This document shows, piece after piece, positions 9,208 to 44,988 of a stretch of DNA of 64,000 bases (positions are counted from its first letter, which is position 1; each line of letters begins with the position of its first letter). A program made the translations under genes and the position numbers. This DNA is from Macrostomum lignano. Taxonomy: Eukaryota. The stretch is from assembly GCA_002269645.1 (NCBI GenBank), contig NIVC01001593.1:50287-114286 (forward strand), in the 5' to 3' direction. The notes beneath the pieces were generated by a model. The model made no database searches. It was not told where the DNA came from and saw nothing but the letters and a program-made list of their open reading frames with translations.

Positions 9208-10372
9208 TATAGACACAGTGGCTGTGTCTATAATATTTGAGCTTATAGGCATGGCTATAATCATCAATATAAAATGCATGTTTTGTAGGGCCCTCTTATA
9301 AGCAAGTGGTGGCTTAGTGAGTATGTTGATTGCCTTGTGATTGCAAGTAGCTAGGTTTGAATCCCAAGTGGTTGAAGTTTTTTTTAATTTGAATTTTTTT
9401 AGCAAACAGAAAATTTTCTATCTTGAACTTTTTAAGTTTAAAAAATAAATTAAAATAAATTAAATTAATTTTATTAATAAGAGTAACACTAAATCTTAAA
9501 GTGCGACAAATATGTATCGAAAAATTATTTCTTTCCAGTAGCTACATATATAATTGTGGCGGCACTCTTAAGAATTAATTTAATTTAATTTTTTAAAAAA
9601 ACTAAAATAAAAAACTCAGACTTTTCAATCAATCAATCTTTTCACCTGATTGATGATTATATACATGCCAGGTTGCAGATGGTATGCATGTATGCCAGAA
9701 CTTTTCTGGCATACAAAACGGCCACCCTAAGTCCTTGGCGTATACAATCGATGTACACAACCCTTGGCGCACTTTGTTGGCGTACACTATTGGCATACAC
9801 AAGTAACACAGCCATGCATACTTTTTTGGCGTATAAATTTTGGTGAATAAATTCATGCCGTGCATGAAAATTGTAATGTAAATTAATGTTTTTATGTAAA
9901 GTAAAGGAAAATTTATGTTGTCAATGATAAACTTTTTGCTTCTTTTAAATTAATAATAAATAAAATTAGTGTAAATTTTTGCTAAGAGTATTAATTTTGC
10001 ATCATATTTTTTGTAGGTATAATTTAAGTTTGTTTAAATTGAAAATATTCATAATATCTTAAAAACACTTTTCATACGAAAGCCTTTCTTAGAAAACTCT
10101 ACTTGTGAAAACTGAATGCCCTTTTTTAAGAATTATTTGTGTACATTTTAGTGCAACTTTTTGTTTTTGGTGTACACTGGCATACAAAGTCCTTGACACC
10201 TGAATTTTTTCTGGCATACACGGGTACATGATCCATACACTGGTATACATGGCGATGGTAGCCATGCCTATAAGCTCCAATATTAGAGACAGGGCCATCC
10301 ACCATGTCTCTAAGTGTGAACCCATTCAATATTAATGACATGGCCACCCACCATGTTTCTAAGTGTGAACCC
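9208..10372. repeat. AT-rich degraded repeat or possible non-autonomous DNA element that received the LTR insertion
   Basis: 26-bp inverted repeat with 1 mismatch (9232-9257 vs 10259-10284); 11-bp-stem hairpin at 9208-9232; recurring GGCATACA motifs; ~49-bp local tandem unit at 10279-10372 that resumes after 20828. Confidence 0.4.
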
Positions 10373-11428
10373 TGTGGCAGGCGGATGCCACTATTGATTT
10401 TTAGTGAATGGGACCTGTGACGGTGACTAATTTTGACTGTCCGCGTGATGCTTCGTTTCTGTTTTTTTCCTTAGCATGGTTCGAGTCCAACCTTTCCCCG
10501 AGTTGGACTTCGTCCATCGGGTTTGTCCACCGTTTAATCCACGCGGTGTTCATGCATGCCCTCATACTGGAGGTTTGTTAAAATGCGCTCATTACGGTAA
10601 CTTTTGCGAAAATCCATGTTGTGAATGGTGCGTGCCCATCACCTAGCCCAGCCGTTGCTCCATTGTGAGAACCATTTCTGCGGTCTATTTAAACCCCTTA
10701 TCTTTTGGTGTAATTGCTCTCTCTCTCCCTCTCTCTCCCGCTCCCTTTCTCTTCCTCTTCTGTGCCCGCGTTTTTTTTCCTTTCTGTTTGTACTTAATAT
10801 TCAGCGCGCCCAGTTGTATTAAATCCCGATCGCATTCAGCACCCAGGTACCGCCTGCGAACATCATCCTCGTTGATAATAATAATATTATTTACTTTCGC
10901 CTGCTTACAGTTAATAATAATAACGTTAACCATTAACCATACATTAATCTATATTTATCCGTTGACATTAAGCCATAGCATTTTATTGAATCATTTGCCT
11001 GTGGGGCATAAAATAACCAAGTCCTCATCTCAAAGATAGCTCTGGGACTTATCCGTTCTGTAATACGTAAATTACGGTGGTGGCAGCAACTACCCTACTG
11101 AAAGTAGCAAACTCAGCTATTCGACGCATTATTTTACAGAGTCAGGAATCTCCAATTACAGTGTTTCATCGATTTGAACGACCTCGCCGCTACACGACCA
11201 CTCCGCTACGATTACGACTACCCTCCCCCCGGACTTGAGAACCCGGCAGCCGGAGTAAAAGGAGAAAGATTTTCCTGTTGAGATTCGTCTGCGCGATTTT
11301 CCCGGTTTTATTCGTGCGAACTCAACATTCGGCGGAAATTCAAACGAGGAATCTGCCCCAGCTCACTGGTGTCAGCAAATTTTCAAAACCGCCCAATTTC
11401 CAAGAAAATCTCCTCCACCCCCGCCTCA
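10373..11428 (+). repeat. 5' LTR (1056 bp)
   Basis: Begins TGTGGCAGGCGG, ends CCCCGCCTCA. By manual comparison about 15 substitutions and 1 indel against the 3' LTR. TATTTAAA TATA-like box near 10686. Confidence 0.96.
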
Positions 11429-11429
11429 T

Positions 11430-11450
11430 TGGTGGTCAGCTAAGTGGGAT
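11430..11450 (+). promoter_or_regulatory. Primer-binding site, degenerate tRNA-Leu type
   Basis: TGGTGGTCAGCTAAGTGGGAT 1 nt after the LTR. Resembles TGGTGTCAGAAGTGGGAT (complement of the tRNA-Leu(CAA) 3' end) with small insertions. Confidence 0.7.
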
Positions 11451-11499: not shown

Positions 11500-12891
11500 A
11501 TGGCTTCAACTAATACTAATTCAACGACCGCGGACGCGACAGCCGACGCCGCGGGCCCCGACAACTCAACGACAAGACCGGCCTACGACGAGATGATTCG
11601 CGCGGTGACCGAAGAGGTGCGCCGGCGACTGGAGCAGACCAGCCTGGGCCAGCCGCAACACCATCATCATGTGTACCAGCAGCCCCAGCAGCAGGATCGA
11701 GCTCCAGCGCCGAAACCGGTCAAGATTCAGCAGTATACGCAGAACCAGGAATTCGACGTCTGGATCCAGGCTCTGGAGGAGCGTTGCAAGCTCAACGGGA
11801 TCACAGACGACAAACGCAAGAAGGCGGAGGTCCTCGTGAATCTGGACATCGCCACCACCTATCCCGCAGTCGTCAGGATGGAGCTGCCAGATAATCTAAC
11901 GTTTGGTGAGTTCAAACAGCGATTGTCTGAACGTTTTACGCATGTGGCCGACACGCTGGAGTACCGGGAGCAGTTCCGAAGCTGCCAGCAAGGCAAGAAC
12001 GAGAGCGTTGACGACTATGGCGATCGACTAATTGCTCTGGCCGATAGAGCATTTCCGCATTTTACCCCGGTTCAGAAGCAGGCTGAACTGGTGGATCAGT
12101 TCACAGTGGGAGTGCGGATTGCTCAGTCGGCGAGAGAACAGCTAATCCTGGTGCGACCGCAGAATCTGACCGCAGCGAGACGGGCCGTGCTACGCTTGGA
12201 GACAGCAGCTAGCCTGGCTCAGCGAGTAGCACCGCCGCCAGCAGCGAGACATGTCCGGGTCCTCGAAGATGACAATGGTCAGACGCCCACTGTGGTGCAA
12301 CACGACAAGTCATCTCGGCCCGAGGAGAACTGGTTGCGTGAAGTGATGGAACAACAAGCCGAAACTCTGCAGGAGCAGCGACGCCTACTGGAGACATTGA
12401 GTAACGAGATGCGAGAATTCTACTCACGGGGATCGCGCGACAACGACACCCCGGAGCCATTGGAGCCTCGCCACCAGCCGCGGGACTCGTGGGGCCAACG
12501 CTCCAGATGTCTGGTACCCTCGACTCCTCGCCGCAGCGCTGACGGAAGCGCCCAATTTACGACACCCGGCACGCGAATGGTGCCACAGCAACCGTTCCAT
12601 CGACTTCAGCAACCACGAGACGGCAGCAACCCGCCGCCGAGAACGCCGCCAGCAGGAGGTCCACGTCAGCAGCAGCAGCAGCAGCAGCAGCAGCCGAGTT
12701 CAAGGCCGCCGCCTTACCAGTTGCGACGGCAGAATGCCATGTGTTACAGGTGCAATCGCGAGCATCGTGCCGATGAGTGCCCGCACCGGCGGTCGGCCAG
12801 CACCGCGTCCCAGCGCAACGGCAGCTCGGGAAACGGGACGGCTGGACGCGCCATCGGGGGCAGCGCCATCCAGCAGCCGCGCCAGCACTGA
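11500..12891 (+). CDS. gag: Gag (capsid-like region plus variant zinc knuckle)
   Basis: First ATG at 11500 in the long ORF; retrotransposon gag-like helical region; C-x2-C-x3-H-x4-C knuckle (CYRCNREHRADEC). Confidence 0.88.
   Translation: MASTNTNSTTADATADAAGPDNSTTRPAYDEMIRAVTEEVRRRLEQTSLGQPQHHHHVYQQPQQQDRAPAPKPVKIQQYTQNQEFDVWIQALEERCKLNGITDDKRKKAEVLVNLDIATTYPAVVRMELPDNLTFGEFKQRLSERFTHVADTLEYREQFRSCQQGKNESVDDYGDRLIALADRAFPHFTPVQKQAELVDQFTVGVRIAQSAREQLILVRPQNLTAARRAVLRLETAASLAQRVAPPPAARHVRVLEDDNGQTPTVVQHDKSSRPEENWLREVMEQQAETLQEQRRLLETLSNEMREFYSRGSRDNDTPEPLEPRHQPRDSWGQRSRCLVPSTPRRSADGSAQFTTPGTRMVPQQPFHRLQQPRDGSNPPPRTPPAGGPRQQQQQQQQQPSSRPPPYQLRRQNAMCYRCNREHRADECPHRRSASTASQRNGSSGNGTAGRAIGGSAIQQPRQH
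12828..12875 (+). promoter_or_regulatory. -1 programmed ribosomal frameshift signal (gag-pol)
   Basis: G GGA AAC heptamer in the gag phase (12828-12834), 6-nt spacer, then a GCTGGA...TCCAGC stem. The pol frame is -1 relative to gag and open across this site. Confidence 0.8.
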
Positions 12892-15800
12892 AGTCCCCGC
12901 CGAGGACTTTAGTCGCTCAGCAGGCCACTGCTGAGACAGCCTCCGCCGCACCTGTACAGAACTCTGCACCCAAGCGACCTCGGAGAGATCCGTTTTTAAC
13001 TGGTGAGATTCAAGGCCGCTATTTTGCTTTCTTGCTTGATACCGGGTCCAAGTGTGAAGTCCTAGGATTCAGCACCTGGCACCGCCTATGTACTGACGAC
13101 CCGACCCTGCGTGGCCAAATCAAGCCCTGCCTTCAGCGCATCGTGACCTACAATGGTGAGCCAATTCAGATGGCAGGAGAACTATCTATCAAAGTGAAGA
13201 TTGGTAATTTCGAGCCTACAGTCAAGTTTCTGCTAGCGAAAGGATCGCATGACAACATTCTGGGCTTCGAGTTCCTGGAGAAGTACAGCACATCACTGGA
13301 CCTCGCCGCCGGAATGCTGTTTTTCAAGGACGGCACAGCCGCACCGCTTCGCTACACGCGAACCGAAGCTACAACGTGCAGAATCTACACGGCCGAGAGC
13401 ACCACTGTGCCGCCGTTATCATCTGCCCGAATTAAAATCAAATTAGCCAAAGGACGAGAAGAAAACCAGGGTACACCCGCCGTGATCGAGCCGCTGAAAC
13501 CGGCTCGTCGCGAAGAAGATGTGCAGCACTTGGACGCCGCGCCTGCCCTGATTTCCATGGCTAATGGAGAAGGCGCTATCGAAATGATCAACCGTGGCAC
13601 TACAGCCATCAAAGTGCGAGCGAATGCCCTAGTCGGGATTGCTAGACCAAGCAGACTGCCCGAGCTACATTTCTTCCCGCTGCTGAAATCAGAAGACTCT
13701 GTCAATCAAATCCAAGACGAGGATCCCGATGCTTGGATTAAGGAGATCGATATCAGCGAGGATCTGTCCAGTGACCAGCGCGCTCAAGTCATCGAGCTAT
13801 TGAGAAAGTACCAGACCATCTTCTCGCAGGGGCCACACGATCTCGGCCGAACTCATCTGGTCACCCACAACATCGTACTGAAGGACAAAGATCCGGTGCA
13901 TCTCCCAACGCGAAGGATCCCGCCGCACCTGCTACCCAAGGTGGACCAGTTACTCGACGATCTGCTGGCCAAAGGCGTGATTCGACCGAGCTTCTCTAGC
14001 TACAACACCCCGCTGGTGATCATCCCGAAGAAGGACGGCAGCCTAAGAATTGTACAAGATTTCCGGAGTCTGAATCAAAAGTGCGAGTATTTTCCGTACC
14101 CGATTCCTAATATTCAAGAAGCATTCGCCAGCCTCGAAGGAAGCCAGCTATTTAGTACATTCGATTTGAATAGCGGCTACTATCAGATCCCTCTGCGTCC
14201 GGAAGATCAAGACCTGACTGCCTTCGCCACGCTGCACCGCGGACAGTTCGCCTACAATGTTATGCCAATGGGATTAAGTTCAGCCCAGCCAGCTTCATGC
14301 GCCTCATGAACGCTGTGCTCAACGGGATTGCCTACAAAAGTGCTATTGCCTACCTGGATGACGTATCGTCTATTCTAAGAAATTTAACGACCACCTACGG
14401 CATATGGAAGAAGTATTTAAGAGAGTCCAAGAAGCTAATCTAAAGTTCAAAGGCAAGAAGTGCCATTTATTTCGGGCAAGCCTCAACTACCTGGGACACG
14501 TAGTAACCAAAGATGGAATCAAGACCGACCCGGCGAAAATCGAAGCTATTCAAACCTGGCCAAGACCAAGAACAGCCCGACAGCTTAAGAGTTTTGTCTG
14601 CACGTGCGCTTACTATGCTAAATTCGTACCTGGCTACGCAGAACTTGCAGCTCCGCTCCACGACCTAATCAAGGAAAAGAAGATTAGAAATTTCAATTGT
14701 CTATGGGGAAAAGCCCAGCAAGACGCGTTCGATCAGCTCAAAGCAGCCATGACTTCGACATCAGTGCTCGCGTATCCGCAGTTCAGCGAGGATCCGGAAG
14801 TAATGTTTATCCTGGACACGGATGCTTCTGCGACCAGAATCGGAGCCTGCCTGAGCCAACGCCAAGCTGATGGAGTAGAGCGACCAATAGGCTATTTCTC
14901 CCGGCGACTCAAACCGGCCGAAGCCCGTTATCCGATTACGAAACAGGAACTCTTGGCAGTCGTAGATGGAATGCGACACTTCAGATTCTACCTGCTGGCC
15001 AAGAAGTTCATCTGCCGAACCGATCATGCCGCATTAACCTGGATCCTGAGGCGAACTCAGCAAGAAGGAATCTTTGGACGATGGCTACAGCGCCTCAGCG
15101 AATTCGAGTTCGAGATCCAGCATCGAAAATCAAGTCAGCACCAAAACGCCGACGGCCTCTCAAGACGGCCTGAGGACGACGCTGAATGTTTGGAGGAGGC
15201 TCAGCGAGAGGCCGCCGTCGAGGACCAAAGTAAGCAGCCAGCCGCGATAACTGGCGCAGCGGCGCCGAAGGTCCACGACAGCAGCCACCCTAGTCCTCCA
15301 CCGAGCAAGAAGCGACCGACCCGCCGTCACCGACGAAAGCCGCCGACGAAATCAACTGGGTCCAACGACGAGACTACGCCGCCCGCAACACCGACAGCCG
15401 ACAGCAAACCGCGGACAGAGCTGCATCCGCCGGCGACAAAGTCGAGGCCATCTGCCAGTCGTTATTGGGACTCACAGAGGTCGCCCACCAGTTTTAGCAG
15501 CCCGACATGTTGCCCGTCAAGGGGCCGCCGGCTACTAGCTGAAGGCGACGAGGATAGCGACCACAGCGCAGCCAGCGAAGACCGCTGCCAACCCGCTCGC
15601 CGTCCTGTGTTCAAGAAGGTGAGATTCAGCCTTGATACCGACAGTTCCGCTGACTCACTCTCATCTGCTGACGAATCTAATGCTGACGAAGCCGACGCTG
15701 ACATGACCGATGAGGATCGGCCCTCAAATTCTTCATCGACCCGGCAACCGGCCAGAGTAGCGATTATGCGGAGGGAGCTCCAGACCCCGAACCATGCCGC

Positions 15801-17411
15801 CATAGCCGAAGCCGCGCCGACTAATTCGACTAACAGACGCCAAACTTTGAACTTAACTGATCACATCCCGAGACCAGTCACACGTGAGGAGCTCCAGACC
15901 CATCAGCGTGCTGACTCCGCCATCGCGATGATGATCAACTTAATTGAAAGTCGACAACCGAAGCCGCCGCTGAATCAGCGATTAAATCTAACAAGAGATG
16001 AGCGAAATCTCTTAGCATTCTATGAGCAATTGGAAGTCCGAGACGACGGACTATTAGTCATCCATCTCGACGATGTTGGCGAGGAGGACAATGCGAGGAT
16101 CGTCCTGCCGAAGAGTCTCGACGCCACAGTGTTTGCCGACCTGCATGGTTCGCCCTACTGCGGACACATGGGCCGAGATCTCACCATCGCAAAGGTGCGC
16201 GAGAGGTTCTGGCGACCGGCCCTGGCCAAGGCCGTGTCCGACTATGTCGCTTCCTGCCAGACCTGCACTCAGAGTAAAGGACGGCGACGCATCCCGGCGC
16301 ATGTACAATCATTTCCGGTCTGCGAAATCTATGGGCGATGTGCGATCGACATCATGGGCCCCACTGGAGACCCGACAGACCGAGGCAACAAGTACATCCT
16401 CACCTACGTCGACACGACGTCAAAGTACCCCTTCGCCTTCGCCATGAAGAATCAGCGCGCCAAGACGATAATAACTCTCCTGCAAGAGCAAGTCTTCCCG
16501 ATCACCGGAATCCCCGCGTGGATCCATTCGGACCAAGGCAAACAGTTCACAGGGCACGAGTTTCGACATTTCTGCGAAGTCTATGGCATCCGGCAGACAA
16601 CGACGCCGCCATACTCGCCCTGGGCAAACGGTCAAGCTGAATCGTGCAACAAGAACATCAAAAAGTGCTCACTTGTCTCCTCGAAGATCATCAACAGTGG
16701 GACAAGATGCTGCCAGCCGCTCTGACAGCTCTAAGATCAGCCGTCAATCGTACGACGGGATTCTCGCCGCATTACGTCATCTACGGAGTGCCCTACCGGT
16801 ATCCGATCGATAACACCCTAGATCGCCTGGACGTATCGCCGGACCTCCCCGAGTACATCGCAAAGCATCAGCGTAGACTGGCCGAGACTGAAAGGATTGT
16901 GCGACAGCGATTGCGAGCTGAGATCCAACGCCGTGAAGAGTACTACGAAAATCGACCCAAGCCCGTGGAACTGCAGCCTGGAGACCTGGTCTGCTTAGCC
17001 AACCCGAAGCTCGAGTCGGGCGAGCTGCCGAAGTTTCACCGGCCGTACAAAAGCATGTACAAGGTCAACAGAAAGGTCGGCGAAGTAGCCTACTGGATCC
17101 AGCCGGCAACAGCCCGACGTGGACGCCCAGCTGAAATGCTAGTTCATCGCAATAACATCATCAAGGTGCCGCAGATGATGGCAGATCGACCGCAGGAGCC
17201 GCCGCGCCAGACAGAGCGGCCAATGCTGCCCTTCGAGTCGAGTGACGAAAGCGAAGTCGACCCAGCCGATCAGCCCGCTCCAGAACAGCCAGCCGCTGCT
17301 CAGCCTGACCTGCGCGGCAGCCAATTGTTCGAGCCGAGCCTCCGCCATCCGGAACTGCTGTCTGAAGGCGACCCGGATCTGCCTGACATCGGTATGGAGC
17401 TCGAAATCTGA
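12828..17411 (+). CDS. pol: Pol (protease-RT-RNase H-integrase), interrupted by three apparent 1-nt deletions
   Basis: LLDTGS at 13038; RT motifs RIVQDFRSLN, MPMGL and YLDD (14351-14362); RNase H LDTDAS...KQELLAV...TDHAAL; integrase HHCC, IDIMG/HSDQG/QAES and a GPY/F-like region. Frame breaks near 14285, 14364 and 16662. Confidence 0.92.
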
Positions 17412-17595
17412 AAAGGTAATTACTAATGAGTTTTCTGTTGCGCCAAGTTGCTAACTTCTGATGCGCATTACTATTAGTAGTTGTATTTGCGAACGCGTTC
17501 CAATTCTCATTTTGCTGTAAGCTTTCTCTGCACCTGCACTGTGCTGAAAGCCGATTTTAGTTTTCCATTTAAGTTTGCCGTTTCGTCATTTTTTT

Positions 17596-18220
17596 CCCTT
17601 ATGCTTTCCGGATAAAAGCAGGCGTCGTTTCAATGTAATTTTCCTTATGCTTCAGGGTTAAAAGCAGTGTCATTTCCCTTATGCTTTCCGGATAAAAGCA
17701 GGCGTCGTTTCAATGTAATTTTCCTTATGCTTCAGGGTTAAAAGCAGTGTCATTTCCCTTATGCTTTCCGGATAAAAGCAGGCGTCGTTTCAATGTAATT
17801 TTCCTTATGCTTCAGGGTTAAAAGCAGTGTCATTTTCCTTATGCTTTCCAGATAAAAGCAGGCGTCAATTTTATTTCAATGTAATTTTCCTTATGCTTCA
17901 GGGTTAAAAGCAGTTGTCATTTTCCTTATGCTTGAGGGATAAAAGCAACAAATTTTCTCATTCTGCTGTTCAATTCTGTTTTCCTTATGCTTTCCGGCTA
18001 AAAGCAGCGTTCTGAACCTCTCAGTTCTCATGTACAGTGAATTTTCCCATCTAACCAATGCTATCGATATTTATTCAACGCGTCAATATTTATTCAATGC
18101 GATACAGTACTTTGCGTTTCATCTGTTTTTGCAAATCCCCGTTTGCTGTAAGCTTCTTCGCACACGGCCGAAGTGCAGAAGCGCCCTCCTTTTCCTTATG
18201 CTTTCAGGAGAAAAGCAGCG
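17596..18220 (+). repeat. Array of ~11 short inverted-repeat motifs CCTTA-TGCTT(T)-N7-9-(A)AAGCA, partly arranged as an 80-bp tandem unit
   Basis: ATGCTTTCC recurs at 17601, 17681, 17761 and 17841. Each 80-bp unit holds two hairpin subunits; dispersed copies occur near 17983 and 18194. Confidence 0.85.
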
Positions 18221-18988
18221 AATTTGTACACCTTATAGTTCGATTAAAGCTGTAGGTAATTTTTAATTTTCTTTCTAAGTTTGCCAGCCCACTGTCTAAG
18301 GGCCAAACTGTCTTTTGCCGCTCAGGTCAAGCGCCCCTGTTCTAGGCCTCGACCCCCCGCTCTTTGTTCGATTTTGTTTCGAGCCTGGGAACATTGTGAG
18401 GGCCGCTAATTTTGGCTCCCCCCCTCTCCCAGTGCCAGTAGTATTCCCTGCCTTGTAACTCCTTATGAAGTCTCTGCATGCCATATCGGTAGCTAACCTA
18501 CTTTATTATAACATTATTATTAGTATGGAACCCGCCTTTGCTCCTTTACTAATTTATTTGTTGTTTGTGTGCTAACCAGCCTTTTCTTAACCGCCCCATT
18601 TGATGTGAGCCGTTTAAGGCGCCCTTTCATTCTAAGTTAGACCCCCCCCTTTGCCGCGGTTTGCTATCTGTTTTATTACTCCTCTAGTGGTCACCCACCC
18701 CTCCTCCGTGCGCGTTCACCATAGAGTACACGCGGAGTGATGACTGGTGCCCTGTTCCAGCGTGTGAATCTCCTTTATTCACCGCTTGGGCAGTTTTCCG
18801 AGTATATATGGCAGTCAAGTGGCTCTGTTTGTCGCATATTGTAAACTTCCTTGCAATCCTTTGTAATTAAACTAATCGGCGATTTTTTATTCCTTTTCAA
18901 CTGCGACCCCACTGAGCTATCTTGTAAATATTTTGTGTATATATATCTCTATTTATTTTGTTTGCCCCTCGTGCTAATCCCGACGGAC

Positions 18989-19741
18989 ATGGACCATCTG
19001 CACGACGACCCAATGATGGGAATCAACCAAGAAGACTTCGAACCGGCGTTTTGCGAGATGTTGGAAAACGCTAATAATTTGCCGGGATTGAATCCGCCCG
19101 CGCCAGATCCAAGTCCGGAGGTCGACCTCATCGACCACTGGTTAAATCCTTTTTTAGAAGCCGTCGACGCGGTCGCCGTGAATGAAGACGTGGTTCATGA
19201 AGCTGTACGCCTGCTCGAGGAGTGGGCCGACACGCCCCCGTCTTCGCCGGCCAACGGGGAGGTCCCGGCCCCAACTCCGGAGCTGCGACCGGCCCACCAG
19301 CTCGCCGAGCTCCTCTTTTGGGAAACCATTAGTGGGCCCGGGCCGTTGTTCCTGAACGACTGCCTTACCTGGAGTCAGCTGGCCCGGCAACACTCCCGGC
19401 GCGATGCCACCACGGCCATCGAGACCACTATGGCCCTTCTAGGCGATCGCCTACGCCTAGAGACGACTGGCCAACAACTTGGGCCCTGTGCCACGCTGAC
19501 TAATCTTCTGGTCAACCAAGGCCAATGCCACCGGATACCGGCTATGTTAGATCAACTATGCCGGGACGCGCGCCTCGCCAGCTCCGCGCCAGCCTCCCGC
19601 CCGCCGAGGGCCACCACCAATGCTCAGCCTGACCCACCAGCCCAGCCCAACGGAGCCGAACGTGCAACTCGCTCAGCCAATCGCGGAGGCCGCATTTCCG
19701 CCGCCCGAGGCCGCTACAGCTACAACGGCGGCAGCCGTTGA
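18989..19741 (+). CDS. Extra retrotransposon ORF3 (~250 aa), not env-like
   Basis: ATG at 18989; 753-nt GC-rich ORF ending 32 nt before the 3' LTR. Acidic N-terminal half and Arg/Gly-rich C-terminus; no signal peptide or TM helix visible. Confidence 0.7.
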   Translation: MDHLHDDPMMGINQEDFEPAFCEMLENANNLPGLNPPAPDPSPEVDLIDHWLNPFLEAVDAVAVNEDVVHEAVRLLEEWADTPPSSPANGEVPAPTPELRPAHQLAELLFWETISGPGPLFLNDCLTWSQLARQHSRRDATTAIETTMALLGDRLRLETTGQQLGPCATLTNLLVNQGQCHRIPAMLDQLCRDARLASSAPASRPPRATTNAQPDPPAQPNGAERATRSANRGGRISAARGRYSYNGGSR

Positions 19742-19773
19742 ATTGTTCGACATGTCCCCAGCCGCCCCGTGCA

Positions 19774-20828
19774 TGTGGCAGGCGGATGCCACTATTGATT
19801 TTTAGTGAATGGGACCCGTGACGGTGACTAATTTTGACTGTCCGCGTGATGCTTCGTTTCTGTTTTTTTCCTTAGCGTGGTTCGAGTCCAACCTTTCCCC
19901 GAGTTGGACTTCGTCCATCGGGTTTGTCCACCGTTTAATCCACGCAGTGTTCATGCATGCCCTCATACTGGAGGTTTGTTAAAATGCGCTCATTACGGTA
20001 ACTTTTGCGAAAATCCATGTTGTGAATGGTGCGTGCCCATCACCTAGCCCAGCCGTTGCTCCATTGTGAGAACCATTTCTACGGTCTATTTAAACCCCTT
20101 ATCTTTTGGTGTAATTGCTCTCTCTCTCCCTCTCTCTCCCGCTCCCTTTCTCTTCCTCTTCTGTGCCCGCGTTTTTTTTCCTTTCTGTTTGTACTTAATA
20201 TTCAGCGCACCCAGTTGTATTAAATCCCGATCGCATTCAGCACCAAGGTACCGCCTGCGAACATCATCCTCGTCGATAATAATAATATTATTTACTTTCG
20301 CCTGCTTACAGTTAATAATAATAACGTTAACCATTAACCATACATTAATCTATATTTATCCGTTGACATTAAGCCATAGCATTTTATTGAATCATTTGCC
20401 TGTGGGGCATAAAATAACCAAGTCCTCATCTCAAAGATAGCTCTGGGACTTATCCGTTCCGTAATACGTAAATTACGGTGGTGGCAGCAACTACCCTACT
20501 GAAAGTAGCAAACTCAGCTATTCGACGCATTATTTTACGGAGTCAGGAATCTCCAATTACAGTGTTTCATCGATTTGAACGACCTCGCCGCTACACAACC
20601 GCTCCGCTACGATTACGACTACCCTCCCCCGGACTTGAGAACCCGGCAGCCGGAGTAAAAGGAGAAAGATTTTCCTGTTGAGATTCGTCTGCGCGATTTT
20701 CCCAGTTTTATTCGTGCGAACTCAACATTTGGCGGAAATTCAAACGAGGAATCCACCCCAGCTCACTGGTGTCAGCAAATTTTCAAAACCGCCCAATTTC
20801 CAAGAAAATCTCCTCCACCCCCGCCTCA
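19774..20828 (+). repeat. 3' LTR (1055 bp)
   Basis: Homologous to 10373-11428 and followed by the AACCC TSD. Confidence 0.96.
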
Positions 20829-22909
20829 AACCCATTCAATATTAACAACATGGCTGCCATGCAAGTTTCATTGACACGGCCACTGAGTCTATAAGTTTCT
20901 GCATTATAGACACAGTTGCCATGTCTTTAAGTGTGGCATTTTAACAAAGTAGCCTAAATTGCCATCAGGTAGGCCCTAGTAAAAACATTTTTATTACCAG
21001 TTTAGAAATTAATAAAAATATATATAGCCTGATGTCTTCAAAATAAAAAAACCTTAAAAAAATTTGTGAAAATATTACAATAGGCTTACTAAGAAAAGGC
21101 TTTTTGTCTATTTAATTAACAAATTGGTAGCAGATTAATAAACTAGAAATGAGAAATAATAGGCCTAAACATACTGGGCCTAATTCAAATAAATACCTAG
21201 GCCTCTCTACTAGGCCTATAGTCATAGAGGGGCTACAAAATGACAAAAAATGATCTAATTGAATAATATATAGGCCTAAAGCAAGTTTTATAAAATTTTA
21301 AATCCTTTGAACATGAAAAATTTCAAGTTATGAATAAATCACAAAGTCAAATGTCTTGGTAAAATGGTATTTTCAAAAAATTTTCTTTTTCATATTTTAG
21401 TTAAAGAAAATACTTTTTATGCTGCATTCTTATATTTTCACATCAAGTTTATAATGGTTGAAAACATTGATTGTTATAGGATAGTTCTGATAAAAGTCAT
21501 TCAAGACATTTTATGCCATTGGCATTGTCATGTCATTTTTAGAAACTGGAAGCATCACCATCAGTTTTAATAATAGAAACAAGAAAATTTAGACCCATCC
21601 TCTACTGCAAAGCTGTTAAACTTCCCATTCGAAGCTGCAGTTATCTGAAAGTGAAAGTGTAAAGTTAATGATTATAAAAAATTATTGAAAATATCAAAAT
21701 GATACATGGTACACACCGTACATGTTCAATATCCTAGCTTTTAAGTTTTAACATACTCATAGATATCACACGGTCTAGATCAACAGATCGGTAAAAATGG
21801 ATCGACCAAAATAACTTTGGCATTGCATCAGAGTAACACCTTTTAAAGAAAGCATGTCTGAAAATTTTCAGAAACTAAAAATACAACTTTACATCTTTAC
21901 TTGAGTTCTTAAAATTTTTGTAAAATTACTACAGTGTTACTAACAAACGGAGTAATCTTATTCTTATGTTATATTTAGCCTACTAAGATGTCCATCTGGC
22001 TCTCCATCTCCTCCATAAGATGGCTCTCCATCTGCAGTCTCAAGTATACGAGGGAAGGGACTTCTTAAACAAACAAACTTTACAAGATTTTGCAAAAAAA
22101 TATTCTAAATTTAAAAGCACTGTAAGTAAAAAATTAACGCATCTAATAACACCCAATAATAATTAAGAACCTTAAAAAGTATTATAAAATTTAATTATAC
22201 ACTAATTCCTTGCCGCATCACATATGCTGCTTGAAATTATTTGTTTTAGCATAGCCAAAGCGTTTTTTTCGAATAAATTAACTCCGTAAATGTCTGCATG
22301 TCTTCATGTGGACAACATAATAAAATATTGGTTATCGGGAGCACGAGAATCGCTCACAGATGAATTTCCCACCGAGATTTTCCCGTCGAGATTTGCCCGC
22401 ATGCAGTGCGTGTATATTTTGCCCGTGAGTGAAAATTGCCCGACGAGCGACCGCCGAGAACTGCTCTCCGAAAATTTCCCACACTGCAATTTGCCCGCGA
22501 GTGAACTACCCGCGAACGAATTTCCTGCAGATTTTTCCCGCCGAGGTTTGCCCCACAATGCTTTTTTCCAACAGCGCATTTTGCTACATTTTCATCCCCA
22601 TTTTGTGCATTTTCTATACGCATGTAGGGGGTTACATCGGTGAGCTGTTATAATTCATGCATATGCATTATCTCCTAAATCTCTTTATTAAGACTGCTTA
22701 TAAATCTCCTGTATAATACCCCTGTAATTTTATTACCCCTGTATCTCTCCTTAGCGTAAGCATTGGGGGCAAAACGCGTCGCAAAAGCATGCACTGCGTC
22801 GGAAGCTCGGCGGGCAATGCGGGCAATTCTGCTGGCAATTCTCATGGACCCTGCTTATCATCCCTGGCTGAGCGATCCAAGGACCACTGTAGAGGTATAA
22901 ACTGTACGT

Positions 22910-25355
22910 TTAGTTTGTTATAAATGTACTACAGGGGTCCTTGGTACGATCTTTGTCATACGCTTCCCTTTTTCTTATTTGATTTTGAGCAAGGATCGAA
23001 TGGATGCTTTCTTCGTAATTCACCAAAGTTGTACGTATAAGACATGAAAATGTCATCATTGAAGATTCAAGAAAACTGTTATTATTTAACACATCGGACA
23101 CTATAAAACTTTGGGCGTATCGAACCGATGGAATGGGGATTGTGGTGATCATGACTCTTAGGATAGAGATTTTTACTGTTTTATTACAGCATATTTTGGT
23201 CTTCCCCCAAACTATACACACGTAGGTTTTGACGCGACGTAGACTTCTGTTACCTGATTGAAGAACATTATTTGAAGCGCCTTCAGAAATATCCATCATA
23301 GAAGGTAGCCCATTCGTTTGCGAAACAAACTCGGCTGAGCACTGCGGGGTTGGTGTTGGCAGCTGTGTGTGCAGCGCAGGTCGTCGTTGCTTCTTTGACT
23401 TCCGTTTCGGACCAAGACGAAGCGCTCGGCGCAGCCTCCGACAAGCAGCATCAATAGACTTATCCATACGATCGTCTTCAAATGCTTCCCATTTTTCTTC
23501 CATCCTGTTGGCAAAGTCAACAATTTCGGCGCGAACTGCATCGCGGTGTTCAGTCAAACGGCGACGGTGCAAATTCTTGCGGCCGAGCCGGTCTGCAGCG
23601 TTGAGACCGGCACTAATTGTTGGCAGCGTCATGCGTCCCCACCTTTTGGGCGGTAATTACATTAGTTATCGGGCCAATTATTATATAAATCACCTGTTAT
23701 TTTAAGAAGCTTTAAAAACCATGCATCCGCGCACCTGTGCTCCTGACCGAAGCAGTTGACCTGAAACACCGGATCGCCGATTAGCGCAGTCTTGGACAGG
23801 GCCATCTGCTGAGCCACCGGGTCGTCCTGACGTTGCTGTCGACGTCCGCGTCTCAGTCTCAGTTTCTGGCTGCACTCGTGGTGCCGCAATTGCGACTTAT
23901 CGGACGCGCCAGCCGACTCGCAGGCGGGGAAGCGCCAGAACAATGGATCCTGCTGGCAGGGAGCGCCGTCAACAGGTGCGGAAGCGCGGGCAGTGCAGCA
24001 GCCGGACTCGAGGCCGCTCAGCTGCCGCAGCAGCCTATCAATCTTGCGTCGAGCGCCGGTGATTCGCTTGGTGATCTCGGCTCCAGCGCAGCTCGATCTG
24101 CCTGGTCTGGCGCGCGTGACCGCCGGGTTGCAGGCCAATGCCAGGTAGCGCAGATTGTCGCCCAGTAGTTGAGCTTGCTCCGTCAGCTCATGGCCATTGT
24201 CGGACAGTAATGGCTTGTGTGGCTCCGTGCAGCCATTGGCGTTGCTGCCGGACAGCAGGGTAGTGTTCGCGGGCTCCATGGACAGGCGCTGAAGCGATTC
24301 TATTGCTCCTAGCAGGACATCGCGCCTCTCCGGCTTATTGACGTTAGTTTTGCCTAGTTTTGATAAAATAACTGGAGTAGCTGTTTGGCCAATAGGCAGA
24401 TGTGCAACCGACAGCTCAGCCGCAGCTATTGCGCGGCGCATCTGAAGGCTGCGTACGGCTGTTCAGGCCGATGACTGGGGGGTCGTCACACACACCCTCA
24501 ATTAACCCAGCTAATGCTGGCACCCATTTTACAGCTGGGTGAACTGAAGCAATGCAGAGTTAAGTGTCTTGCTCAAGGACACAAATTTGTTTGCTGTGGG
24601 ATCGGGGAATCGACCCCCCCCCAAACCTTCAGTCCGATGCTCTAACCACTAGATTACAACGCTGTTTGACCGGTAATTAAAAAGGAGTGTCCCAGCGCGG
24701 CGTGAGGTGGGTGACTGGAGAAAGAAAATTTTGAACAATTTACGCGCGCCGTGGGCTCTGATAGGGGACTAGGGGGAGAGAGAGAACTGCCAAAGTGTAC
24801 ATGCCTACTTTATGAATAAACTCTAGCCAATAACAATGAGGCAGGAAAGACCATGCATGCAACCCCCTACAACCCCCAATCCCAAGGCGCAGTGAAGTGT
24901 ACATGCCTAACGATAAATAAAGTTGGACCGCTGTACACTCCTGCGTGTGTGTGTGCCTGCTCAGGGGAGTTGGCGGAACGGGCAGTAATGCCTCTCACGG
25001 CGTCTCGCCGGTTATGTGACAATGTCGTTTAAAGTGCAATACTTAATCCAGAAACTCCTGTGCTTGAAATCCTGGGAAATCCTGGCTAGAGTTTTACCGG
25101 ATTTAGAGGGAAACAGTCGGTCTTACCGTCTCTCTCATCCGTGCGCAAGGATTGCATCTCGGCCGATGGGCGCTCGCCCAGGAACCTATACAAGTTGGCC
25201 TGTAGACGGCTCGACCTGTCGCCGCAGCCGGCTTTGTAGCCTCTTCTGTCGCTTAGATGGCGCCGCAGCATTTGGCGCTGGCGCCGTCTGCTGGCGCTGT
25301 CGGCCGGCTGCTGCTCGGGTAGCATTTGCGGCGCGCGTGTTTCTGTGCAAATTTG
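22910..25355 (-). CDS. Uncharacterised spliced gene, copy 1 (candidate exons 25127-25355, 23735-~24441, 22910/23254-23642)
   Basis: GC-rich open frames joined in phase by a 92-nt AT-rich intron (AG|GTGCGC...ACTAAT...AAAAG|G). Donors G|GTAAGA at 25127 and G|GTAACA at 23254. The exact exon 2 acceptor is uncertain, and no family was recognised. Confidence 0.6.
24445..24660 (-). mobile_element. tRNA-derived SINE with CORE-like domain, copy 1
   Basis: The minus strand has an A-box (TAGTGGTTAGAG) and a B-box-like GGTCGATTCCC, then TGTGTCCTTGAGCAAGACACTTAACTC...CTTCAGTTCACCCAGCTGTAAAATGGG, which resembles the MIR CORE. Confidence 0.75.
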
Positions 25356-28300
25356 CTTTGCCTTTCCCCGAGTTGGACTTCGTCCATCGGGTTTGTCCAC
25401 CGTTTAATCCACGCAGTGTTCATGCATGCCCTCATACTGGAGGTTTGTTAAAATGCGCTCATTACGGTAACTTTTGCGAAAATCCATGTTGTGAATGGTG
25501 CGTGCCCATCACCTAGCCCAGCCGTTGCTCCATTGTGAGAACCATTTCTACGGTCTATTTAAACCCCTTATCTTTTGGTGTAATTGCTCTCTCTCTCCCT
25601 CTCTCTCCCGCTCCCTTTCTCTTCCTCTTCTGTGCCCGCGTTTTTTTTCCTTTCTGTTTGTACTTAATATTCAGCGCGCCCAGTTGTATTAAATCCCGAT
25701 CGCATTCAGCACCCAGGTACCGCCTGCGAACATCATCCTCGTCGATAATAATAATATTATTTACTTTCGCCTGCTTACAGTTAATAATAATAACGTTAAC
25801 CATTAACCATACATTAATCTATATTTATCCGTTGACATTAAGCCATAGCATTTTATTGAATCATTTGCCTGTGGGGCATAAAATAACCAAGTCCTCATCT
25901 CAAAGATAGCTCTGGGACTTATCCGTTCCGTAATACGTAAATTACGGTGGTGGCAGCAACTACCCTACTGAAAGTAGCAAACTCAGCTATTCGACGCATT
26001 ATTTTACGGAGTCAGGAATCTCCAATTACAGTGTTTCATCGATTTGAACGACCTCGCCGCTACACAACCGCTCCGCTACGATTACGACTACCCTCCCCCG
26101 GACTTGAGAACCCGGCAGCCGGAGTAAAAGGAGAAAGATTTTCCTGTTGAGATTCGTCTGCGCGATTTTCCCAGTTTTATTCGTGCGAACTCAACATTTG
26201 GCGGAAATTCAAACGAGGAATCCACCCCAGCTCACTGGTGTCAGCAAATTTTCAAAACCGCCCAATTTCCAAGAAAATCTCCTCCACCCCCGCCTCAAAC
26301 CCATTCAATATTAACAACATGGCTGCCATGCAAGTTTCATTGACACGGCCACTGAGTCTATAAGTTTCTGCATTATAGACACAGTTGCCATGTCTTTAAG
26401 TGTGGCATTTTAACAAAGTAGCCTAAATTGCCATCAGGTAGGCCCTAGTAAAAACATTTTTATTACCAGTTTAGAAATTAATAAAAATATATATAGCCTG
26501 ATGTCTTCAAAATAAAAAAACCTTAAAAAAATTTGTGAAAATATTACAATAGGCTTACTAAGAAAAGGCTTTTTGTCTATTTAATTAACAAATTGGTAGC
26601 AGATTAATAAACTAGAAATGAGAAATAATAGGCCTAAACATACTGGGCCTAATTCAAATAAATACCTAGGCCTCTCTACTAGGCCTATAGTCATAGAGGG
26701 GCTACAAAATGACAAAAAATGATCTAATTGAATAATATATAGGCCTAAAGCAAGTTTTATAAAATTTTAAATCCTTTGAACATGAAAAATTTCAAGTTAT
26801 GAATAAATCACAAAGTCAAATGTCTTGGTAAAATGGTATTTTCAAAAAATTTTCTTTTTCATATTTTAGTTAAAGAAAATACTTTTTATGCTGCATTCTT
26901 ATATTTTCACATCAAGTTTATAATGGTTGAAAACATTGATTGTTATAGGATAGTTCTGATAAAAGTCATTCAAGACATTTTATGCCATTGGCATTGTCAT
27001 GTCATTTTTAGAAACTGGAAGCATCACCATCAGTTTTAATAATAGAAACAAGAAAATTTAGACCCATCCTCTACTGCAAAGCTGTTAAACTTCCCATTCG
27101 AAGCTGCAGTTATCTGAAAGTGAAAGTGTAAAGTTAATGATTATAAAAAATTATTGAAAATATCAAAATGATACATGGTACACACCGTACATGTTCAATA
27201 TCCTAGCTTTTAAGTTTTAACATACTCATAGATATCACACGGTCTAGATCAACAGATCGGTAAAAATGGATCGACCAAAATAACTTTGGCATTGCATCAG
27301 AGTAACACCTTTTAAAGAAAGCATGTCTGAAAATTTTCAGAAACTAAAAATACAACTTTACATCTTTACTTGAGTTCTTAAAATTTTTGTAAAATTACTA
27401 CAGTGTTACTAACAAACGGAGTAATCTTATTCTTATGTTATATTTAGCCTACTAAGATGTCCATCTGGCTCTCCATCTCCTCCATAAGATGGCTCTCCAT
27501 CTGCAGTCTCAAGTATACGAGGGAAGGGACTTCTTAAACAAACAAACTTTACAAGATTTTGCAAAAAAATATTCTAAATTTAAAAGCACTGTAAGTAAAA
27601 AATTAACGCATCTAATAACACCCAATAATAATTAAGAACCTTAAAAAGTATTATAAAATTTAATTATACACTAATTCCTTGCCGCATCACATATGCTGCT
27701 TGAAATTATTTGTTTTAGCATAGCCAAAGCGTTTTTTTCGAATAAATTAACTCCGTAAATGTCTGCATGTCTTCATGTGGACAACATAATAAAATATTGG
27801 TTATCGGGAGCACGAGAATCGCTCACAGATGAATTTCCCACCGAGATTTTCCCGTCGAGATTTGCCCGCATGCAGTGCGTGTATATTTTGCCCGTGAGTG
27901 AAAATTGCCCGACGAGCGACCGCCGAGAACTGCTCTCCGAAATTTTCCCACACTGCAATTTGCCCGCGAGTGAACTACCCGCGAACGAATTTCCTGCAGA
28001 TTTTTCCCGCCGAGGTTTGCCCCACAATGCTTTTTTCCAACAGCGCATTTTGCTACATTTTCATCCCCATTTTGTGCATTTTCTATACGCATGTAGGGGG
28101 TTACATCGGTGAGCTGTTATAATTCATGCATATGCATTATCTCCTAAATCTCTTTATTAAGACTGCTTATAAATCTCCTGTATAATACCCCTGTAATTTT
28201 ATTACCCCTGTATCTCTCCTTAGCGTAAGCATTGGGGGCAAAACGCGTCGCAAAAGCATGCACTGCGTCGGAAGCTCGGCGGGCAATGCGGGCAATTCTG

Positions 28301-28378
28301 CTGGCAATTCTCATGGACCCTGCTTATCATCCCTGGCTGAGCGATCCAAGGACCACTGTAGAGGTATAAACTGTACGT

Positions 28379-30824
28379 TTAGTTTGTTATAAATGTACTA
28401 CAGGGGTCCTTGGTACGATCTTTGTCATACGCTTCCCTTTTTCTTATTTGATTTTGAGCAAGGATCGAATGGATGCTTTCTTCGTAATTCACCAAAGTTG
28501 TACGTATAAGACATGAAAATGTCATCATTGAAGATTCAAGAAAACTGTTATTATTTAACACATCGGACACTATAAAACTTTGGGCGTATCGAACCGATGG
28601 AATGGGGATTGTGGTGATCATGACTCTTAGGATAGAGATTTTTACTGTTTTATTACAGCATATTTTGGTCTTCCCCCAAACTATACACACGTAGGTTTTG
28701 ACGCGACGTAGACTTCTGTTACCTGATTGAAGAACATTATTTGAAGCGCCTTCAGAAATATCCATCATAGAAGGTAGCCCATTCGTTTGCGAAACAAACT
28801 CGGCTGAGCACTGCGGGGTTGGTGTTGGCAGCTGTGTGTGCAGCGCAGGTCGTCGTTGCTTCTTTGACTTCCGTTTCGGACCAAGACGAAGCGCTCGGCG
28901 CAGCCTCCGACAAGCAGCATCAATAGACTTATCCATACGATCGTCTTCAAATGCTTCCCATTTTTCTTCCATCCTGTTGGCAAAGTCAACAATTTCGGCG
29001 CGAACTGCATCGCGGTGTTCAGTCAAACGGCGACGGTGCAAATTCTTGCGGCCGAGCCGGTCTGCAGCGTTGAGACCGGCACTAATTGTTGGCAGCGTCA
29101 TGCGTCCCCACCTTTTGGGCGGTAATTACATTAGTTATCGGGCCAATTATTATATAAATCACCTGTTATTTTAAGAAGCTTTAAAAACCATGCATCCGCG
29201 CACCTGTGCTCCTGACCGAAGCAGTTGACCTGAAACACCGGATCGCCGATTAGCGCAGTCTTGGACAGGGCCATCTGCTGAGCCACCGGGTCGTCCTGAC
29301 GTTGCTGTCGACGTCCGCGTCTCAGTCTCAGTTTCTGGCTGCACTCGTGGTGCCGCAATTGCGACTTATCGGACGCGCCAGCCGACTCGCAGGCGGGGAA
29401 GCGCCAGAACAATGGATCCTGCTGGCAGGGAGCGCCGTCAACAGGTGCGGAAGCGCGGGCAGTGCAGCAGCCGGACTCGAGGCCGCTCAGCTGCCGCAGC
29501 AGCCTATCAATCTTGCGTCGAGCGCCGGTGATTCGCTTGGTGATCTCGGCTCCAGCGCAGCTCGATCTGCCTGGTCTGGCGCGCGTGACCGCCGGGTTGC
29601 AGGCCAATGCCAGGTAGCGCAGATTGTCGCCCAGTAGTTGAGCTTGCTCCGTCAGCTCATGGCCATTGTCGGACAGTAATGGCTTGTGTGGCTCCGTGCA
29701 GCCATTGGCGTTGCTGCCGGACAGCAGGGTAGTGTTCGCGGGCTCCATGGACAGGCGCTGAAGCGATTCTATTGCTCCTAGCAGGACATCGCGCCTCTCC
29801 GGCTTATTGACGTTAGTTTTGCCTAGTTTTGATAAAATAACTGGAGTAGCTGTTTGGCCAATAGGCAGATGTGCAACCGACAGCTCAGCCGCAGCTATTG
29901 CGCGGCGCATCTGAAGGCTGCGTACGGCTGTTCAGGCCGATGACTGGGGGGTCGTCACACACACCCTCAATTAACCCAGCTAATGCTGGCACCCATTTTA
30001 CAGCTGGGTGAACTGAAGCAATGCAGAGTTAAGTGTCTTGCTCAAGGACACAAATTTGTTTGCTGTGGGATCGGGGAATCGACCCCCCCCCAAACCTTCA
30101 GTCCGATGCTCTAACCACTAGATTACAACGCTGTTTGACCGGTAATTAAAAAGGAGTGTCCCAGCGCGGCGTGAGGTGGGTGACTGGAGAAAGAAAATTT
30201 TGAACAATTTACGCGCGCCGTGGGCTCTGATAGGGGACTAGGGGGAGAGAGAGAACTGCCAAAGTGTACATGCCTACTTTATGAATAAACTCTAGCCAAT
30301 AACAATGAGGCAGGAAAGACCATGCATGCAACCCCCTACAACCCCCAATCCCAAGGCGCAGTGAAGTGTACATGCCTAACGATAAATAAAGTTGGACCGC
30401 TGTACACTCCTGCGTGTGTGTGTGCCTGCTCAGGGGAGTTGGCGGAACGGGCAGTAATGCCTCTCACGGCGTCTCGCCGGTTATGTGACAATGTCGTTTA
30501 AAGTGCAATACTTAATCCAGAAACTCCTGTGCTTGAAATCCTGGGAAATCCTGGCTAGAGTTTTACCGGATTTAGAGGGAAACAGTCGGTCTTACCGTCT
30601 CTCTCATCCGTGCGCAAGGATTGCATCTCGGCCGATGGGCGCTCGCCCAGGAACCTATACAAGTTGGCCTGTAGACGGCTCGACCTGTCGCCGCAGCCGG
30701 CTTTGTAGCCTCTTCTGTCGCTTAGATGGCGCCGCAGCATTTGGCGCTGGCGCCGTCTGCTGGCGCTGTCGGCCGGCTGCTGCTCGGGTAGCATTTGCGG
30801 CGCGCGTGTTTCTGTGCAAATTTG
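28379..30824 (-). CDS. Uncharacterised spliced gene, copy 2
   Basis: Same ORFs as copy 1 at +5469. Confidence 0.6.
29914..30129 (-). mobile_element. CORE-like SINE, copy 2
   Basis: Duplicate of 24445-24660. Confidence 0.75.
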
Positions 30825-33800: not shown

Positions 33801-33848
33801 CCCTGGCTGAGCGATCCAAGGACCACTGTAGAGGTATAAACTGTACGT

Positions 33849-36295: not shown

Positions 36296-36583
36296 CTGAA
36301 ATATAAGAAGCACTTGTTGGATGTGTGTTTAACGCCAGGACAGACGAATGATGCTGTCTATGGCACAGCTCGTATATAACAGCAATCAACTTTTCCTTTT
36401 TACTAGCGTACTTGAGCCTGATCTCATTCACCCACTAAATTAAGCCTCAAATACAACACCCAAAGGGCCTGTCAACTTAAGCTCTGCATAAAGTGGAGCC
36501 CAATTAACCTATATGTACACAAATGATACGTCATATGCATTCTGCTCACGGTGACACTAGGAAGCTGGGTTTGGCAAAAAGGC

Positions 36584-44650: not shown

Positions 44651-44988
44651 TTATAGCATGGAGGCTGCAGATTGCTCCCTAATCAAGCCAATCAGTTAAA
44701 TATACAAATGATGTGTAAAGTGTAAACTTATTTGCAGGTAAAGTTTTTTTAGCGACTTTTCACCTGGGCCGCAACGCAGAGGTCAAAGCTGACGTCTGAT
44801 TCAGACAAGTCAAATTTATGACCCTCTAGTTCTAAACTTAGAATACCTTGAAATGAGTGCGCGGATTTAATTGAGTTGGTTAAATTGTACGCTTGGGAGC
44901 AGCGGCTCCTGTGAATGCCTGCCCAGGTATATCCTGGAGTTTGCAGCGTTGCTATTGGGAGCCGGTCTGCTTTGAATTTGACTCTGGA

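Follow-up and report, generated by a model that had tools for sequence, protein, structure and literature searches.

The window analysed here is a 64,000-nucleotide stretch of Macrostomum lignano DNA (contig NIVC01001593.1, positions 50,287 to 114,286 of the forward strand), and all coordinates below are window positions. Between 10373 and 20828 it carries a young Ty3/gypsy retrotransposon that includes an array of short hairpin units and a third open reading frame (ORF3) between pol and the 3′ LTR (Table 1). The hallmarks of the group are present, namely a pair of LTRs with TG...CA ends, a target site duplication and a primer-binding site with a putative likeness to tRNA-Leu, and Pfam matches place gag ahead of a pol gene in the order PR-RT-RNase H-IN. 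The LTRs (~1055 nt each) are 98.5% identical with 15 substitutions, and a slippery-type GGGAAAC site at 12828 lies inside the gag/pol overlap. The closest relatives of the RT/RNase H region are other M. lignano elements (56–59% identity). A low-complexity spacer of ~230 codons (15150–15850) is situated between RNase H and integrase.

No polypurine tract precedes the 3′ LTR, and a C-rich stretch is found instead in all 28 copies compared; this is an atypical trait of a family with the remaining Ty3/gypsy hallmarks. The stem of the hairpin that opens the LTR alternates between GGCAG/TGCC and GGTAG/CTACC among lineages (the window element and 27 other copies), and the C-rich stretch and this hairpin may form an unusual plus-strand priming or integration signal. 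The initial ~580 nt of the 3′ LTR are lineage-specific and accompany ORF3, the remainder being family-wide. A CTCA-CTGGTGTCAGC stretch within the LTR (11360–11375 and 20760–20775) resembles an older LTR end plus primer-binding site, as if the LTR 3′ end had been extended.

Table 1. Features of the Ty3/gypsy element in the window
Feature	Coordinates	Strand	Basis or remark
Target site duplication AACCC, 5 bp	10368..10372, again 20829-20833	+	sequence
5′ LTR, TG...CA ends, TATTTAA box at 10686	10373..11428	+	
Primer-binding site, starts TGG	11430..11449	+	
gag, single CX2CX3HX4C knuckle	11500..12891	+	Retrotrans_gag E 6e-5
pol (PR-RT-RNase H-IN), frameshift-broken here	12777..17411	+	open pieces 12777-14309, 14362-16725, 16641-17411
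Splice-donor-like AG/GTAATT directly after pol stop	17412..17421	+	conserved in most copies; candidate site
Array, 11 units of CCTTA + 5-6 bp stem + GG-loop	17597..18217	+	
Predicted internal promoter, conserved upstream boxes (GAGTRCA at 18723), TATA box at 18803	18600..18809	+	
ORF3-A N-terminal arm, acidic, proline-rich	18989..19279	+	net charge -8 to -20 in 12/12 A proteins examined
ORF3-A core, predicted five-helix domain, ~100 residues	19280..19591	+	pLDDT 87
Basic RG-containing tail of ORF3-A	19592..19741	+	common to B-type sibling L097
C-rich stretch at expected polypurine tract, then covarying hairpin at LTR start	19752..19792	+	
3′ LTR	19774..20828	+	

ORF3 had been recognised in a first-pass annotation of the window as a non-env reading frame of about 250 aa with an acidic N-terminal half and a basic tail, lacking a signal peptide or transmembrane helix. 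This description holds: the frame is intact (18989–19741, 250 aa), its first 97 residues have a net charge of -20, the RG-containing basic tail has 9 K/R and 2 RG dipeptides in 49 residues, the best 19-residue hydropathy is 0.78 behind an acidic start, and neither env or errantivirus hallmarks nor a Pfam family were found. By its composition the arm is activation-domain-like. It also contains SP/TP and PPLPP-like motifs and an acidic amphipathic helix (DxWLxxFL-like) that are conserved across lineages and are possible phospho-regulation or docking sites. In sibling elements the region of the core is occupied by an unrelated domain, described below as B, and we refer to the window protein as type A.

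The window protein has 64 matches in the genome, mainly at 30–60% identity. Among the A cores dN/dS is 0.10–0.40 (10 pairs, pS 0.15–0.4), and 27 of the 40 cores in this set are free of stops. The earlier proposal of an accessory protein is supported in that ORF3 is a real gene under selection. Homologues elsewhere were sought by several routes, with none for the window ORF3 among 1243 candidates, one hit for the A profile among 7997 sequences scored and no usable hit in an Atlas search; neither A nor B has a Pfam family or a relative beyond M. lignano in the databases searched, although such blanks reflect limited sensitivity as much as novelty. A possible origin from a captured host gene, or from a known domain such as a GDSL, DEDDy, J-domain or DEATH-fold protein, was examined as well: Pfam gave no match, and the fold searches gave generic helical matches only. 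The best VIA match of the A core is translin/C3PO (Z 8.5, rmsd 3.7, 97 aligned), within the range of generic helical bundles. A DEATH fold for the A core found no clear match, with no Foldseek hit at E≤0.001 in the PDB or a viral library.

How ORF3 is expressed bears on an earlier suggestion that it is translated from an RNA spliced to 18917. The words on which this was based are present, with CTAAT at 18872 and AG at 18915–16, but across 38 copies the distance between the ATG and its nearest upstream AG ranges from 0 to 206 nt, which shows a lack of conservation of the acceptor at 18915. What is conserved is a TATA word 88–227 nt before the ORF3 ATG, with conserved boxes upstream of it, in 28 of 30 copies; in 26 copies (L049, L096, L105 and L116 left out) two control windows gave 4 of 26 each, and the leaders behind the TATA contain 4 ATGs where 40 are expected, counts that are not independent as the copies fall into about 19 flank clusters. 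The window leader (18833–18988) contains no ATG. The conserved TATA box and the ATG-poor leader fit an internal promoter better than a splice, and ORF3 is likely expressed from this predicted promoter. Resemblance of TTTTCCTTAT to the U12 branch-site consensus was also considered and rejected, as the second A is absent.

At the donor-like site after the pol stop, one genomic copy (L097) is joined exactly to its ORF3 start; its B17 sisters have TTG instead of AG at the join, and another copy (L096) has lost the same region through a join that ignores the donor. Contigs from two runs, presumed to be RNA, bridge 18917 unspliced and could be genomic RNA or DNA. No joint into 18917 was seen among the 15 of 32 joints listed, and none at the donor among those listed (with 31 further loose ends), which is no evidence either way. 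The match of one X5 contig ends at 17416.

Three distant copies (L047, L048 and L050) have an extra N-terminal domain fused in frame to A. Queried with the fusion protein, the genome returned 134 matches, the majority covering the extra domain (B) alone and lying in the same slot of the same element family. The ORF3 slot of this family holds one of two non-homologous proteins, A or B; a comparison of the two profiles found no likeness (hhalign probability 0.5%). B is a domain of ~145 residues with a predicted fold (pLDDT 77), and it lacks the acidic arm whereas A has one; the tails are basic and common to A and B siblings. For B dN/dS is 0.10–0.21 (5 pairs, pS 0.15–0.4), with values of 0–0.83 for closer pairs on few changes, and both A and B are under purifying selection. 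The fold search with the B core gave a best Z of 6.6 and no Foldseek hits. Compared with 1.84 billion representatives, the B profile had two weak hits, apparently unrelated, and two strong ones, both M. lignano hypothetical proteins identical to relatives from the loci examined.

The A/B pair nearest to the fusion is a weakly linked one and is the same for its two halves (50% and 63%; unrooted tree). The fusion lacks the acidic arm and is accompanied by degenerate array units only, so it need not serve the same job as an A/B pair. In the fusion copies gag-pol is distant (58–80% identity) and has deletions, and the spacer has insertions; their ORF3 is intact (dN/dS ~0.12), and one is annotated as a hypothetical gene. 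At five other loci (L084, L085 and L058–L060) intact B genes, annotated as three hypothetical genes, have a promoter and no LTR or gag-pol match to the window nearby; domestication of these genes is possible.

We examined 121 elements, comprising 58 with A, 60 with B and 3 fusions, numbers that follow the sampling plan and not the genome ratio; 64 of the 121 cores are broken. Single-core genome queries gave 68 matches for A and 114 for B, including fragments and duplicated contigs. Eleven candidate A/B pairs were aligned and nine are sibling pairs, with unrelated cores set between shared flanks that are 90–99% identical. The common upstream flank is 584–670 nt long with 91–99% identity (8 pairs), and the downstream flank ~800–1075 nt with 90–99% identity (9 pairs). 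The window element and its B-type partner L097 are alike on the downstream side only (97.6%), as L097 has lost the upstream region, and window/L117 and L133/L087 are also alike on one side only. Wherever the LTR end was found, the host flanks of sibling partners differ. Two pairs scanned in 300-nt intervals have identities mainly of 91–100% that drop to 51–74% over ORF3; identity is also lower towards the ends of the loci and, in one of the pairs, over the array. The borders of the divergent block vary between pairs, from 0 to 60 nt before the ATG and from -39 to +56 nt relative to the core end, a pattern that recombination would produce by wearing differences away until it meets non-homologous sequence.

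Across the sample, 21 of 49 core clusters have a strong flank neighbour with a different core, and in 20 of these 21 the neighbour is of the opposite type; a strong neighbour is missing for the other 28 clusters and, counted by element, 65 of 118 are without a strong flank neighbour that has a different core. Both forms are present in seven of the eight lineages with at least four members. Among the 26 lineages with at least two members nine have both forms and 17 have one, in a sampling that is incomplete.

The distances among A cores are correlated with those among their partner B cores (r 0.72 for 9 pairs; Mantel r 0.74 for 10 pairs), and for 16 pairs including weak pairs and the fusion the correlation is 0.59 (p about 1e-4; three weak pairs with short cores were omitted). 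The A and B trees, both unrooted and with weak deep branches, have several groups in common. In a tree of integrases (47 rows) A elements stand beside their B siblings, and five A/B sets are starred sisters. Some copies differ from the window by an integrase pS of 0.03 yet have A cores at pS 0.67–0.70, indicating that a 3′ cassette, in which the array and ORF3 are joined to the first ~580 nt of the LTR, is exchanged en bloc between backbones. The divergence of U3 goes along with that of ORF3. Each form is without the ORF3 of the other, yet both retain gag and pol, and both include copies with 99–100% LTR identity over the parts present. Two genome forms coexist with homogenised non-coding regions, as do complementing partner retroelements.

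Three mechanistic explanations of the alternation were discarded. An inversion switch is at odds with zero opposite-strand hits in 80 loci, a programmed exon switch with borders that differ between pairs, and a master element with separate A and B genes was found nowhere among the 121 elements except as the fusion.

The hairpin array was described in the first-pass annotation as about 11 copies of CCTTA-TGCTT-loop-AAGCA with a central GG in each loop. Eleven units are present between the pol stop and the 3′ LTR, and ten of them have the GG, the exception being the unit at 17837 (CCAGATA). An 80-bp tandem repeat, present in ~3.5 copies (spacings 46/34), gave rise to the first seven, and on their own the constant stems within the window therefore prove little. 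Genome-wide there are 656 exact matches to CCTTA-TGCTT-N9-AAGCA and 0 to a reversed-pattern control. In a set of 374 units (61 loci) TGCTT/AAGCA forms the stem in 353 cases and TGCCT/AGGCA in 13; the loop is mainly 8 or 9 nt long, with GG fixed at positions 4 and 5 (359 and 360 units). The CCTTA, which is unpaired, hardly varies. In a looser scan (590 units, 92 elements) the outer stem pair is T-A, G-C or A-T, and 13 of 85 distinct unit types have a Watson-Crick outer pair other than T-A compared with 3.2 in shuffles; the test makes no correction for relatedness, and only three events may lie behind its result. These compensatory changes support the units as base-paired stems, in line with the earlier reading. 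The transcribed strand is not favoured by the G-U-compatible changes (22 on the + strand and 31 on the other). Single hairpins are weak (-1.8 to -3.4 kcal/mol) and largely unpaired in a fold model with 60-nt flanks, the array as a whole has no folding advantage over shuffles (z +1.46), and Rfam gave 0 matches at E≤1.

Of the 58 A elements 35 have at least two units, as do 42 of the 60 B elements. The motif is identical in both types and unchanged across lineages whose ORF3 cores share just 28–66% identity. This constancy with A, with B and in every lineage speaks against the earlier proposal that ORF3 has a binding array of its own: ORF3 is probably not the array reader, and the pattern of conservation points instead to a conserved protein, probably the Gag nucleocapsid or a host RNA-binding protein. 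A Gag packaging signal had been the other option in the first-pass annotation, and a signal of this kind is the reading of the array that we prefer. The array would be a signal separate from ORF3 that acts on genomic RNA in packaging, export or stability; lying upstream of the predicted internal promoter, it would be confined to genomic RNA.

Other identities for the array fared less well. The Smaug/ZCCHC14 SAM-domain proteins have a CNGG loop consensus, and as a general explanation they were rejected because CNGG fits only 139 of 374 units; the commonest loop class is GANGG (198 of 374), and 20 of 61 loci have no CNGG among the units found. A pseudoknot between the flanking CC and the loop GG was set aside, since both are near-invariant and zero covariation was seen. 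Helical phasing of the units as DNA sites is weak (R 0.20, p 0.04, from non-independent values). Nor does the array fit anti-silencing of the VANC type, in which the target motif should change with the protein: the same motif accompanies A, B and all lineages. Two copies, L097 (G000:C2067) and L096 (G000:C1811), have kept both LTRs (99.6% and 98.7% identical) and have neither the array nor the internal promoter; either copying has no strict need of the array or the loss dates from insertion or later.

The presence of A and B in matched pairs, lineage by lineage, likely means that the two proteins work together and that the element behaves as a two-part genome. The explanation we prefer, with a probability of roughly 0.4, is that the paired genome forms, near-identical save for the A or B ORF3, act together in trans through a two-part accessory complex, and we infer binding between A and B, activation and co-packaging. 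A would supply the acidic, proline-rich activation-type arm and B a partner domain, with basic tails on both; the A+B complex of a lineage would switch on its own U3 promoter, the A and B forms would then be transcribed in one cell and co-packaged, and template switching would keep all but the non-homologous core alike. In favour are the nine sibling pairs, the co-divergence of the two cores and the purifying selection on them, the B+A fusion, a TATA box conserved among copies and the divergence of U3 with ORF3. Strict co-dependence is weakened by the 17 of 26 lineages with one form, incompletely sampled as they are, and recombination limited to close relatives would also produce co-divergence with no need of A-B contact. 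Furthermore, per-copy selection on a gene that acts purely in trans should be weak, whereas A and B cores alike are conserved; the proposed activation role is read from composition; and the fusion, with its degenerate array units, does without the acidic arm. A stricter form of the proposal, a bipartite LTR retrotransposon with ‘mating types’ in which a lineage persists only as an A plus a B genome and lineage-specific A-B recognition leads to joint expression or packaging, is tentative. If it is true, recombination between partners would be enforced and the family split into isolated lineages.

The per-copy selection that is awkward for a trans-acting complex fits an effect in cis, and a possible though somewhat doubtful alternative is that A and B are self-sufficient variants under balancing selection, each form winning in different cell types or against different defences, or the rarer form gaining because each protein blocks its own type, with co-packaging homogenising the flanks. 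The retention of gag and pol, the copies with near-identical LTRs in both forms and the one-form lineages in the sample agree with this; but a U3 and an internal promoter common to the members of a pair speak against different tissues, just two types are seen, each with a lineage-matched partner, and the fusion unites both in a single protein. An activator/repressor switch, with A activating and B damping the same promoters from separate genome forms, draws on the internal promoter and on an acidic arm present in A and absent from B, and has a precedent in foamy virus Tas/Bet (PMC13220597). We consider it unlikely, since repression alone would bring a form little benefit and its decay would be expected, whereas B is conserved and has 114 matches to 68 for A, and the B+A fusion is hard to fit. 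About as unlikely is a spliced Rev- or CERV-like ORF3 with the hairpin array as its binding site and with the export or packaging of unspliced RNA as its role. The conserved donor-like site with the array behind it, the exact join in L097, the basic tails common to A and B siblings and the CERV precedent (PMC10309623) speak for such a protein; against it there are the lack of a conserved acceptor, the TTG in the B17 sisters, the L096 join, the motif that stays constant as the cores diverge, and the presumed-RNA contigs that are unspliced across 18917 (and could be genomic RNA or DNA). Finally, many hits are near-identical duplicates on separate contigs and about half of the sampled cores are broken, as neutral cargo, duplicated haplotypes or an assembly artefact would predict; this reading is already largely refuted and is very improbable, given host flanks that differ between pair members where the LTR end was found, dN/dS well below 1, the recurrence of the pattern in 10 lineages with congruent trees and the absence of opposite-strand hits in the 80 loci.

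Alternative content between homogenised flanks, or two genome types that recombine, is found in several other systems. Fungal mating-type idiomorphs have non-homologous content at one host locus, HERV-K type 1 and type 2 (Np9/Rec) differ by a deletion that changes splicing, and the autonomous and non-autonomous LTR partners of soybean are helper and parasite. Taken singly, there are known examples of non-env ORF3s, of internal promoters and of partner retroelements whose flanks are homogenised. In the literature searched we found no description of this ORF3 or of the A/B pairing (an earlier classification of the host LTR families may bear on the family name), and no case of two gag-pol-bearing forms alternating orphan accessory genes by lineage.

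Closest are the Oryza pararetroviruses ePVCVL and ePVCVL2, two coexisting retroelement genomes whose non-coding regions are near-identical through recurrent region-specific recombination and for which complementation was proposed (PMC5491270). Those partners are separate virus species that lack core genes, one being without a capsid protein, whereas in M. lignano both forms have gag and pol, one accessory gene differs and there are at least 10 co-diverging lineages. Foamy viruses express Tas and Bet, which regulate the same promoters, from an internal promoter near the 3′ end (PMC13220597), a likeness to the predicted internal promoter and two candidate regulators described here; Tas and Bet are made from a single genome by splicing. 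No sequence likeness between Tas/Bet and A/B was found. The CERV protein of the C. elegans gypsy-type element Cer1 is likewise an orphan, non-env accessory protein (PMC10309623), and as in the Rev/RRE system a cis element confined to genomic RNA is plausible for the M. lignano family; CERV is spliced, large and single, whereas ORF3 is apparently promoter-driven and has two forms, and the array does not track the protein. Bdelloid LTR elements have non-env ORF3s and varied cargo in the env slot that are exchanged as modules (PMC5408684), but these are recognisable captured enzymes across unrelated lineages, unlike the orphans A and B that alternate within each lineage. An accessory protein next to tandem repeats is also seen in VANDAL transposons, where the anti-silencing protein VANC is found beside such repeats in non-coding DNA (PMC5735166); the target repeats of VANC vary with the protein, whereas here the array motif is constant and U3 co-varies instead.

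LTR retrotransposons are usually treated as single genomes, at most with parasitic deletion derivatives. In the family described here two full-length forms differing in one orphan gene have been kept together through at least 10 lineage splits that saturated synonymous sites. This selfish element provides a countable natural case of genome segmentation, or of a polymorphism like that of idiomorphs, with relevance to the origin of multipartite genomes and to the splitting of transposon families. Two new predicted helical domains are a further outcome, and matched pairs of them, cognate and non-cognate, are available. The A/B pairing is not visible from the window sequence alone and was found family-wide in the genome; consensus-based repeat annotation would hide it. 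M. lignano LTR families have been sorted by consensus in PMC12801592, where the word ORF is absent from the main text, and the same source reports that LTR reporter transgenes work in this animal.

The surroundings of the window element are themselves repetitive. A unit of ~5.47 kb that contains the last 937 nt of the 3′ LTR plus flank is tandemly repeated from 19892 to 36300, with copies at 25361 and 30830 that are 99.8–99.9% identical, and a 42-bp tandem repeat with ~218 copies extends from 44850 to 54100.
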